DNA of 54,950 nt from Clostridiales bacterium (GTDB taxonomy: Bacteria; Bacillota; Clostridia; Caldicoprobacterales; UBA3941). The stretch covers positions 1 to 54,950 of the forward strand of contig JAAYSJ010000089.1 of NCBI GenBank assembly GCA_012518395.1, read 5' to 3'. The notes under the pieces were generated by a model that did not search any database, was not told the origin of the DNA, and worked only from the letters and a program-made list of their open reading frames with translations. Of this stretch, positions 26,459 to 28,522 are shown piece by piece (position 1 is the first letter of the stretch; every line of letters starts with the position of its first letter). The position numbers and the translations under genes were made by a program.

Positions 26459-27187
26459 TTAATCAAACTGCAAGATTCCCAGTGCCTCGTATGTTTCTTC
26501 ATCGACAAAATGTGTGTATGGGAGACCCTGATCTTTTTTGAATTTTAAAAGGGCCTGTTTCATGCCCTCCCCATAGATACCGTCTATGGAGCCGTTATAA
26601 TACTCTTTCAATTTTAACCTAACTTGGACTTCCAATACATGAGATGTCCTATCCCCCGGTGCCAGTGTTTCCGTATAGCTACCTAAGTTTTTATAAGGGC
26701 CTCCGTATACAATAACCTTTGTATTATAAGGTACCTGACTATATAAATCCTCCACGTCAGAATTATGCATACGGAAACAACCCCCTGACGCCCTTTGCCC
26801 AATGGAATAAGGTTTATTGGTACCATGAATCCCATATATGCCCCAAGGAACATCTATTCCCATCCACCTGGAACCAAATCCTGTACCCCAATTTCGTGCT
26901 TTTGATGTAATCTTCCATACCCCTATAGGGGATGGACTATTATCCTTTCCCTGGGCAACGGGATATTTATTTACCAATTCCCCGTTCTTGAATAGATAAA
27001 GCATTGATTCGTTGAGATCTATAAAAATATCGTATTCCGAAGTCTGCTCTGGGGAGATAATTGTTTCACTGGAATGGGGTCTTATTTTCTCATCGGTTCC
27101 CTCCTTGATGGTGGTAGCATAAAGTAAAGCTATAAGCAAAATATAGAAAGCTACAAATCCAAATTTTCTGATACTCTTCTTGTTCAT
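26459..27187 (-). CDS. L,D-transpeptidase (YkuD domain) with a C-terminal peptidoglycan-binding domain
   Basis: Contains an N-terminal membrane anchor, the catalytic motif HGTNKPYSIGQRASGGCFRM, and a C-terminal PG_binding_1-like repeat (LKEYYNGSIDGIYGEGMKQALLKFQ-like). Confidence 0.85.
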   Translation of the reverse strand: MNKKSIRKFGFVAFYILLIALLYATTIKEGTDEKIRPHSSETIISPEQTSEYDIFIDLNESMLYLFKNGELVNKYPVAQGKDNSPSPIGVWKITSKARNWGTGFGSRWMGIDVPWGIYGIHGTNKPYSIGQRASGGCFRMHNSDVEDLYSQVPYNTKVIVYGGPYKNLGSYTETLAPGDRTSHVLEVQVRLKLKEYYNGSIDGIYGEGMKQALLKFKKDQGLPYTHFVDEETYEALGILQFD

Positions 27188-27283
27188 GTAACCACCTCAT
27201 CCCCCTTATCATTTTATTATATTCATCTAATTAGGGCATTAGACCCTTTCCTATATTGGGTCTTATTGTTAATAAAATATCGA

Positions 27284-27487
27284 GTAGGGCTGAATAATTA
27301 GTTTATTCAGCGTCTTCTCACACCACCGTACGTACAGTTCAGTATACGGCGGTTCATTAGAAATTAATGTACCATAAGATAGCGTTCAGATAAACGCTTG
27401 AGGAATTACCCCCAAGTTTGGAGTGGTTCCCACTACCATGCCCACAGCGGACTTTCACCGCCAAGTTACCGCCCATGCCGGGCACAC
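27284..27487 (-). mobile_element. Degenerate, ORF-less class C (IIC) group II intron remnant
   Basis: On the minus strand the 5' end reads GTGTGCCCGGCATGGG, directly after the terminator T-run. A domain-V-like hairpin, CCGCCGTATACTGAACTGTACGTACGGTGG (27323-27352), carries a CGC triad and an AC bulge. A further hairpin follows at 27290-27310, then CCCTAC. There is no reverse-transcriptase ORF. The 3' boundary is uncertain. Confidence 0.7.
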
Positions 27488-27512
27488 AAAAAAGGAACAC
27501 TTAATGTGTTCC
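27488..27512 (-). terminator. Intrinsic terminator of the aldolase (sugar) operon
   Basis: On the minus strand, GGAACAC-ATTAA-GTGTTCC is followed by T6. It lies 62 nt after the aldolase stop. Confidence 0.8.
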
Positions 27513-27573
27513 CTTCCGAGCAACCTGATTATTATTAAATTCAAAACATAAAGACAACTGAAAAATAGCTTAT

Positions 27574-28476
27574 TTAAACTGAAATTCTATTAGCAGTGCC
27601 GGAGACTTCGAAAAGATCACTTATAAGCTCTCTAACTTTTTCATAGACTAATTGTCTTCCTAATTCAATACCCCCTTCAGCGGCTCCATTTTGATATGCC
27701 TGTCTTATGTCTGCCCCTACGTTTATTTTTGCTATTCCATTTTTTATAGCTTCCAGAATATATTCTTTTTCTATACCTGAACCCCCATGTAATACAAGAG
27801 GTATTCCCGTATTTTCATTAAGCTTTTTTAAGTGGTTGATATTCAGTTTAGCTGTGGGCTTTGCCTGCCCTTTGGCCGCCTCTGATAGTGCCCCATGTAT
27901 ATTACCTATAGCCACTGATAGCCAATCGCATCCCGTCTCCTTTACAAACCTAGATGCTTCTTCCACTCTGGTAAAGCCTTTACCACTTTTAAAAATTTCA
28001 TCATAAGGCGGCATAGGCCCGGATTCGTGGCCAAGTACAGCTCCCAATTCAGCTTCACATGGAAGACCTGCTTCATGGGCTAAAATACAGATTTCTTTAG
28101 TTGATCTGATGTTTTCCTCCAAAGGTAACCTGGATCCATCAACCATCAAGGACATATAACCAAGGTCAATGGCTTCTTTAATTATACTGATATAATCAAC
28201 TGTTAAATAATCCTCGTCTACAACAGGAACATGATCCAAATGAAGACGAACATGATTATCATCTTTCCAATTAAGATATTCATCACGAACTGCACGTAAA
28301 CTCTTAGATTCAAATTTCATCCATTCCGGTCTTGCCACCTGAATAAGGGCAAAGGAATTCTCATCTCTCACCGCCTCTACAACAGCTTTTACCATAGGTA
28401 GGTAGGGAATGTTAAAGGCAGGTATAACAAACCCCTCTTTGTAAGCAATGTCAATTATTTGTTTTGTATTTATCAT
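27574..28476 (-). CDS. Class II ketose-bisphosphate aldolase family protein (FbaA/GatY/KbaY-like)
   Basis: Contains F_bP_aldolase motifs (VIPAFNIPYL, HLDH, EAELG, NIHG, VLHGGSG). The ATG at 28476 lies 5 nt after AGAGGGGA. The substrate is unknown. Confidence 0.85.
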   Translation of the reverse strand: MINTKQIIDIAYKEGFVIPAFNIPYLPMVKAVVEAVRDENSFALIQVARPEWMKFESKSLRAVRDEYLNWKDDNHVRLHLDHVPVVDEDYLTVDYISIIKEAIDLGYMSLMVDGSRLPLEENIRSTKEICILAHEAGLPCEAELGAVLGHESGPMPPYDEIFKSGKGFTRVEEASRFVKETGCDWLSVAIGNIHGALSEAAKGQAKPTAKLNINHLKKLNENTGIPLVLHGGSGIEKEYILEAIKNGIAKINVGADIRQAYQNGAAEGGIELGRQLVYEKVRELISDLFEVSGTANRISV

Positions 28477-28522
28477 ATTTATCCCCTCTTTATGCTTTAA
28501 CTGCATTGTTAATGGTTCACCC

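Follow-up and report, generated by a model that had tools for sequence, protein, structure and literature searches.

A probable internally deleted remnant of a class C group II intron behind the terminator of an aldolase operon

Directly behind the terminator of a sugar-alcohol operon, in a stretch of 54,950 nt that we refer to as the window (the whole of the DNA that was analysed), lies a short element that looks like a group II intron of class C (IIC) at both ends and lacks most of what such an intron has in between. A first-pass annotation, made from the sequence alone, had described it as about 200 nt long, with no reverse-transcriptase (RT) ORF and with most of domains I-IV missing, and as either an internally deleted relic or a non-autonomous mini-element. 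The description of its size and content was accurate, as the element measures 209 nt and retains only 11-12 RT codons. The locus therefore raises the question of what such an element is: the dead remainder of a complete intron, a small passenger of larger relatives, an RNA put to another use, or a fault of assembly.

The element and its target terminator

The operon upstream of the terminator lies on the minus strand and comprises genes for a DUF4432 protein, an FGGY kinase, a mannitol-type dehydrogenase and a class II fructose-bisphosphate aldolase, the ORF of which (27574-28506, minus strand; 310 aa in the window, 300 aa in the database call, P0001) closes the operon. A spacer of 61 nt separates the aldolase from the intrinsic terminator (27512-27488, minus strand), which can be read straight from the sequence as a stem GGAACAC (27512-27506), a loop ATTAA (27505-27501), a returning stem GTGTTCC (27500-27494) and a run of six T residues (27493-27488). 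A consensus terminator scan did not return this terminator, plain though the hairpin and its T6 are, because, in our reading, an extension of the stem through G-T pairs consumes the T-run. The group II 5' end follows on the same strand without a gap, at 27487, just as had been annotated, and the aldolase terminator was the DNA target of the intron insertion. The next gene downstream of the relic is of the ykuD type and encodes a YkuD L,D-transpeptidase (26459-27187); the spacer between the aldolase and this gene measures 386 nt, relic included. In the portion between the relic and ykuD (27279-27188, minus strand) we also observed a hairpin, AGACCC-AATATAGGAAA-GGGTCT, and a TATAAT-like box (GAATATAAT).

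The whole element occupies 27487-27279 on the minus strand, directly behind the T-run. Its 5' segment (27422-27487, minus strand; element nt 1-66) comprises the terminus GUGUG (27487-27483), an instance of the group II consensus GUGYG, and the first 66 nt of domain I; the 16-mer with which it starts at 27487, GTGTGCCCGGCATGGG, occurs once in the 54,950 nt (chance expectation 0.07). This segment stops short of the region covered by the Rfam model D1D4-3, which begins at nt 84 of the full-length parent described below. There follow 22 nt of filler, CCAAACTTGGGGGTAATTCCTC (27400-27421, minus strand; element nt 67-88), in the place of parent nt 67-1790, and then a 36-nt tail of the RT ORF (27364-27399, minus strand), AAG CGT TTA TCT GAA CGC TAT CTT ATG GTA CAT TAA. 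The translation of this tail, KRLSERYLMVH and a stop, aligns to the end of the parent RT (...GYKRLSERYLMIH and a stop), and the retained 3' piece opens inside the RT frame, between GY and KRLSERYLM(I/V)H-stop. The middle of the element is thus 22 nt of foreign filler and the last 36 nt of the RT frame, not a shrunken set of domains I-IV.

The deletion junction reads CCACTCCAAACTTGGGGGTAATTCCTCAAGCG. The filler and the next three bases form an imperfect 8-bp hairpin, CTTGGGGG-TAAT-TCCTCAAG (27397-27416, minus strand), which was flagged by the terminator scan; a palindromic junction of this kind might hint at how the filler was made. A search for the origin of the filler on both strands of the parent gave at best 7 exact nt, or one 11-nt match with a mismatch, which is chance level, and in the window and the other IIC loci nothing went beyond chance (window matches of up to 12 nt). 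We also considered a derivation from parent nt 67-89 (CCAAA...GGG..TCC), and found the likeness too weak to claim.

Domain V (27352-27323, minus strand; CCGCCGTATACTGAACTGTACGTACGGTGG) was placed by the alignment to the Rfam model Intron_gpII and by the predicted fold. It has a 9-bp lower helix with the CGC triad, a 2-nt AC bulge and, in the window allele, an upper helix that is reduced to 2 bp in the predicted fold by a U-U mismatch; the lower helix with its triad, the bulge, a short upper helix and the U-U mismatch had been seen at first pass, and the motif occurs once in the window (chance expectation 0.00). Domain VI and the 3' end (27279-27319, minus strand) were placed by the alignment to the parent, the fold and the end of the Rfam match, and here the earlier description required correction. 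It had ended the element at 27284, had put a 9-bp hairpin in the position of domain VI at 27290-27310, and had found no bulged adenosine. The perfect 9-bp hairpin is there, but at 27311-27289; the Rfam match and the parent alignment both carry the element on to 27279; and A27285, which had been missed because the upper hairpin alone was viewed, is unpaired in the predicted fold, above a basal GAG/CUC helix of 3 bp and 6 nt from the 3' end. The RNA would end in ...CUCGAU (...CCTACTCGAT at 27279), a boundary that is fixed by the tandem copies of the parent, in which the next GTGTG comes directly after CTCGAT. With a fold z-score of -6.8 for the domain V-VI region, domains V and VI are predicted to be still well folded.

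At the gathering threshold, Rfam had no match in the whole window. In a permissive scan of the 601 nt from 27100 to 27700, Intron_gpII, which models domains V-VI, matched 27354-27279 (minus strand) over the full length of the model with 38.5 bits (E 4.7e-6); the gathering cut-off of this family is 40 bits, which is why nothing was listed at that level. The rest of the list for 27100-27700 was noise (E of at least 0.05). The first-pass annotation had proposed a search with Intron_gpII and the group-II-D1D4 models, and it is the former, below its cut-off, that recognises the element, the latter having no match in the window.

In IIC introns, domain V is about 34 nt long, with a CGC catalytic triad and a 2-nt bulge, and the branch adenosine of domain VI lies 6-7 nt from an AY 3' end. 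The element shows the GUGYG terminus, domain V, the bulged adenosine of domain VI and an insertion behind a terminator in the direction of transcription; it has neither a complete domain I with domains II and III nor an intron-encoded RT/maturase. Insertion downstream of an intrinsic terminator is a feature of IIC introns (PMC1702495, PMC4424553), and the earlier assignment to class C by mode of insertion stands: the 7-bp, GC-containing hairpin with its T6 ends at 27488, the intron begins at 27487, and the copies of the parent are likewise placed.

The full-length parent and the alleles of the relic

A metagenome scan with the first 48 nt of the element yielded a full-length, RT-encoding parent, the search for which had been suggested at first pass, and both of its ends match those of the relic. 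It is a IIC group II intron of 1912 nt with an intact RT of 468 aa, present on metagenome contigs L131 and L133-L142 (L131 and L133 being the same contig, JGI24708J26588_10012301). By BLAST, element nt 1-66 are identical to parent nt 1-66 (66/66, E 6e-29), and element nt 89-209 agree with parent nt 1791-1912, that is, with the last 11-12 RT codons, domain V and domain VI, at 117/122 positions (95.9%, E 3.5e-51; four substitutions and a 1-nt gap). About 90% of the intron is lost in the relic, namely most of domain I, domains II-IV and the ORF.

The parent scores 155 bits with D1D4-3 (nt 84-255), 76.5 bits with D1D4-1 (nt 307-392) and 46.4 bits with Intron_gpII. Its RT ORF contains RVT_1 and GIIM domains only, with no endonuclease domain, and the closest named relatives are group II RTs of Thermoanaerobacter and Thermoanaerobacterium (78-79% identity). 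The exact parent RT (P0242) is found on at least 24 contigs. Copies of the parent are 99.9-100% identical and stand behind at least five different terminator-like flanks, each a hairpin and then TTTT(T)AT or TTTTAC, as well as in head-to-tail arrays; the parent is multi-copy and recently active. Contigs L135 and L136 have a common 5' flank before the intron, GGCTAACCCTTTGGGTTAGCC TTTTTTAT. Three samples (ERZ27280805, ERZ925066 and ERZ27280802) contain both the parent and the relic locus. The tandem arrays (L133, 1-4429; L139, 1-2039) hold at least 2.3 copies with 0-1 nt differences between copies, which suggests repeated insertion at one terminator target. For a IIB1 intron, tandem insertion has been explained as a second use of the upstream target, which stays intact, the first G of the intron taking the part of IBS3 (PMC12584367), and by analogy the same explanation may apply to the arrays of the parent.

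Six more contigs, assembled from biogas and bioreactor metagenomes, encode the aldolase protein P0001. Those that reach far enough (L123, L124 and L125) all have the same junction and the same 386-nt spacer; the relic is real and is fixed at the aldolase locus. Over 12,142 nt, L123 and the window disagree at 4 positions, and two of the four fall inside the 76-nt domain V-VI region, at 27336 and 27315. At both positions L123 carries the parental G and the window allele is changed, each change breaking a pair.

Set against the parent, all relic alleles have a C-to-U change in domain V (C-G to U-G) and lack one U of the domain VI stem (a 1-nt T deletion). The window allele alone adds a G-to-U change in domain V (U-G to U-U) and a G-to-A change in domain VI at 27315 (G-C to A-C); in domain V the sequence is ACCGAACGGU in the parent, ACUGAACGGU in L123 and ACUGAACUGU in the window. 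A fifth difference, ATA to GTA in the ORF tail (I-to-V), is shared with the intron variant L132, and is therefore a subfamily polymorphism that is not specific to the relic. The relic-specific changes all weaken pairs of domain V or VI, none of them is compensated and two are recent; with no compensated change, this is the pattern of a sequence without selection on structure. The predicted stability of the domain V-VI region falls from -37.9 kcal/mol in the parent to -32.0 in L123 and -29.3 in the window, and the Intron_gpII score from 46.4 bits in the parent to 38.5 bits in the window relic. The 5' 66 nt have no changes, versus four relic-specific changes in the 3' part; by our estimate about two would be expected in the 66 nt at the same rate, a deficit that is not significant. 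The concentration of L123-window differences in domains V-VI exceeds uniform drift, and gene conversion, a mixing of reads with full-length copies, or a local mutational bias are possible causes.

Origin of the element and competing explanations

The element is, very probably, an inactive, internally deleted remnant of a IIC group II intron retroelement, and we infer the following course of events. A full-length intron RNA of about 1.9 kb, from a family still active in the same microbial community, would have reverse-spliced directly after the T-run of the aldolase-operon terminator, the normal IIC target. About 1.72 kb (parent nt 67-1790) would then have been lost, with 22 nt of filler put in its place. 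This may have happened during cDNA copying of the inserted RNA, if the RT jumped to nt 66 when it stood close to the end of its own ORF, or through a later non-homologous deletion of DNA. As both termini abut a canonical target exactly, it was presumably a complete ribozyme that integrated, and the deletion would have taken place during cDNA synthesis or later. The presence of 22 nt of filler makes simple homologous recombination or slippage less likely, and it is equally compatible with template switching and with non-homologous repair. What was left would now be decaying neutrally in the spacer between the aldolase operon and the ykuD-type gene.

IIC introns recognise their 5' exon by 3-4 bp of EBS1-IBS1 pairing together with the terminator stem-loop, and their 3' exon through EBS3; mutation of the IBS1-EBS1 pairing abolishes correct splicing (PMC1702495). 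Judged by what has been deleted, the loss of the EBS1-bearing region predicts that the relic has neither splicing nor retromobility. The exon-binding sites, the domain I scaffold, domains II-III, the RT-binding domain IVa and the RT are all missing, so that the relic should be incapable of splicing, reverse splicing and mobilisation.

Short IIC derivatives also occur elsewhere. We scanned a genome collection with the pattern GTGTGCCCGGCATGGG-N12-GGTGARAGTCC, which gave at least 119 loci across Bacillota and other phyla, so that IIC introns with this kind of 5' end are widespread; a text search of the literature with the 16-mer from the 5' end had no result. The closest 5' ends among the genome matches listed, from Tepidanaerobacter sp. 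GT38 (L015) and a Coriobacteriia MAG (L119), agree with the element at 64/66 positions. The likeness of the element to full-length introns in these loci ends at element nt 66; in BLAST comparisons 3' similarity sets in only from about nt 113-133, and the middle matches nothing. Domain V was located in the loci with an nhmmer profile, and breakpoints were tallied for 5' ends with at least 2.2 kb downstream and for a few shorter loci that still reach domain V. Among the matches listed, about ten have domain V at 1.81-1.83 kb from the 5' end, which corresponds to full length; four have it at 0.49-0.60 kb (the ORF-less L028, L072, L075 and L116) and two at 0.17-0.22 kb (the minis L032 and L117); and about ten 5' ends are without any domain V. 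In L032, L117, L098, L016 and L018, 60-159 nt of 5' end survive and continue either into 3' pieces that vary from locus to locus or into unrelated DNA, and the 3' breakpoints of the remnants leave 11 to about 40 RT codons. The breakpoints are different in every case, so that these are independent accidents and not one mini-element family.

Several of these loci merit a record of their own. L028, L072, L075 and L116 are natural ORF-less IIC introns of about 570-680 nt, from a Bacillus MAG, Marinilactibacillus and Clostridiales/Oscillospiraceae MAGs, and in L075 (371-1005) about 40 C-terminal RT codons are still present (E 6e-7). In L098 (2227-2330), 78 nt of the 5' end are fused straight to the domain VI loop, without domain V. 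Of the intron in L016 and L018, a 5' stub (60-94 nt) is left, which runs into unrelated DNA. L015 and L130 have a common 5' flank and terminator; L130 holds a full-length intron with its RT, and L015 is intron-like for roughly the first 400 nt (by eye) and then unrelated, so that it looks like a truncated allele of an occupied site. Viral loci L001-L003 were set aside as comparators: L001 and L002 are cut short or have no Rfam-detected domain V, and L003 stops before domain V.

In unrelated Bacillota, the short derivatives (the window, L032, L117 and the ORF-less L075) join about 60-160 nt of 5' end to about 120-200 nt of 3' end, and the 3' piece always consists of domains V-VI and the last 11-40 RT codons. 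It could be argued from this recurrence that such forms are a regular by-product of retromobility, arising when the RT jumps template shortly after passing domains VI and V into its own ORF, or that the survivors still matter, for instance by acting as sponges for the RT, by donating domain V in trans or by preserving a landing pad on which the terminator target stays open to new insertions. We regard this proposal as very unlikely, and nothing in the data supports a function of the short derivatives. The first-pass annotation had further allowed for a non-autonomous mini-element. Such an element would be MITE-like, with the RT and ribozyme of full-length copies in that cell providing for its splicing and mobilisation in trans, and there is something to be said for it: both exact termini are kept, full-length parents occur in the same samples, other genomes hold very short derivatives made of a 5' end and domains V-VI (L032, L117), and bacterial introns without an ORF probably rely on related RTs in trans (PMC4424553). 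The element is, however, present in a single copy in the window, and its junction is absent from 122 IIC-bearing loci and from the viral collection, with no second copy of it among the 142 loci fetched in all; sibling mini-copies behind other terminators, for which a search had been suggested at first pass, did not appear among the matches listed from any of these sources. None of the three metagenome matches to the 5' 48-mer listed by a 5'-end pattern scan has the mini architecture, these being full-length or unrelated forms, and the other minis have different breakpoints. Moreover, the exon-binding-site region, the AGGAA motif, the D1D4 regions and the RT-binding site in domain IVa are deleted, IIC splicing is lost without IBS1-EBS1 pairing (PMC1702495), and the allelic changes break pairs without compensation. 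Of the two readings left side by side at first pass, that of a deleted relic is thus borne out by the alignments to the parent (66/66 and 117/122), and that of a mini-element, for which no second copy of the junction was found in these sources, is extremely improbable.

The element could instead be a structured RNA exapted by the host, for instance as a stabiliser of the 3' end of the aldolase operon, as a secondary terminator or as a ykuD leader. Compared with shuffled controls, the 209-nt RNA has a better fold (z-score -3.6), a terminator-like hairpin sits at the deletion junction, the element is kept in every assembly of the locus, and Toro et al. speculate that there is selection on some conserved intron remnants near transcribed regions (PMC4181065). 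Nevertheless, the fold signal is a legacy of domains V and VI, the polymorphisms within the element all abolish pairing, Intron_gpII is the only credible Rfam family, and the assemblies are 99.97-100% identical overall, which makes retention uninformative on selection. No orthologous locus was found in a second species, the next aldolase homologue being 75% identical and on short contigs, and we hold exaptation to be highly improbable. The chance that a full-length intron really stands here and that the repeat was collapsed by assemblers is close to negligible, even though contig L137 (1-2281, ERZ925726) leads from the 3' end and terminator of the aldolase, with 100% identity to window 27628-27488, into a full-length copy of the parent, and the short contigs L126-L128 end within the 66-nt 5' segment, where a repeat would be expected to break them. 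A collapse cannot make a 22-nt filler, a 1-nt deletion and private substitutions, and four assemblies of different samples arrived independently at the same junction, two of them with contig names in the SPAdes NODE style and two with names in the MEGAHIT k127/k141 style. L137 ends in a 3' flank that is not the one in the window, and L135 and L136 share a 5' flank yet have different 3' flanks, a sign either of chimeric assembly or of recombination among copies of the intron; it is the contigs crossing the full-length repeat that are unreliable. We therefore rejected L137 as proof of a full-length copy at the aldolase site. It may represent a strain in which an intact copy occupies the site and may equally be a repeat-induced mis-join; an intact copy, if real, would favour deletion in situ.

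Relation to known systems

The element is a new instance of a well-known genomic fossil, and its wider significance is small, with its parent and both breakpoints now defined. It offers a clean, mapped case of the death of a bacterial group II intron, in which the termini are kept, the interior is replaced and the catalytic hairpins are eroding stepwise, and its parent, to judge from a copy identity of 100% that extends to tandem arrays, is still proliferating in the same biogas-reactor communities. We note two practical consequences: the Rfam gathering threshold misses such remnants (38.5 versus 40 bits), and the common 66-nt 5' segment breaks or mis-joins metagenome contigs at the aldolase locus. 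Should breakpoints near the 3' end of the ORF prove to be systematic, they would be informative on template switching by IIC RTs.

Among the group II intron copies of bacteria, truncated or inactivated ones are the majority (PMC4424553), and their fragmentation is common and has been ascribed to incomplete reverse transcription or rearrangements (PMC2504315). In the RmInt1 family, internal deletions and conserved remnants are known, such as the copy in S. meliloti AK83 and the FRE652 remnant (PMC4181065). Like such truncated or fragmented introns, the relic has lost most of its sequence, is apparently non-functional and intergenic, and has intact relatives in the same population. Unlike the fragments usually described, which are truncated at the 5' or the 3' end, it keeps both exact termini and loses the middle 90%, and it has a 22-nt filler at its junction; it also belongs to class C, whereas RmInt1 is of class IIB3/D.

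As in O.i.I1, B.h.I1 and the Thermoanaerobacter/Thermoanaerobacterium introns, the insertion lies directly after a terminator on the transcribed strand, and the element shares with IIC introns the GUGUGCC(C/A)GGCAUG 5' end, the CGC triad of domain V, the GAAC loop (that of the parent) and a parent RT without an endonuclease domain. The 3-bp basal helix of domain VI and the 6-nt spacer from the bulged adenosine to the 3' end are as in O.i.I1 (PMC4748821). A remark in the first-pass annotation that both ends closely resemble the Oceanobacillus iheyensis intron can be upheld for the 5' strand of domain V, where the sequence GAACCGCCGTATACCGA carried by an O.i.I1 primer (PMC4748821) agrees with the parent at 17/17 and with the relic at 16/17 positions; at the 5' end, the relic agrees with B.h.I1 (GTGTGCCAGGCATGCGC; PMC1702495) at 15/17. 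Unlike working IIC introns, the relic has no domain I past nt 66, no domains II-IV and no RT, the loop-closing pair of its domain V is broken, and its domain VI carries a mismatch and a deletion.

A comparable loss of coding sequence is seen in copies of B.c.I7, which keep only the first 13 and the last 28 bp of the RT ORF (PMC2504315). Like ORF-less introns in general, the relic has lost its RT ORF, has a short tail of it left (36 nt) and has intact relatives present. Such introns occur in Trichodesmium and Thermosynechococcus. Their ribozyme (domains I-VI) is complete, they are open to splicing or mobilisation in trans, and several near-identical copies often exist, whereas in the relic the core is deleted and one copy is known. 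A further parallel in size is provided by the group III introns of Euglena chloroplasts, minimal group II derivatives of about 100 nt that are spliced in vivo and lack domain V. The relic resembles them in being very small, with group II-like ends and a domain VI-like hairpin. Group III introns, however, are a conserved class and interrupt genes, whereas the relic is intergenic, keeps domain V and would be the recent product of a one-off deletion.
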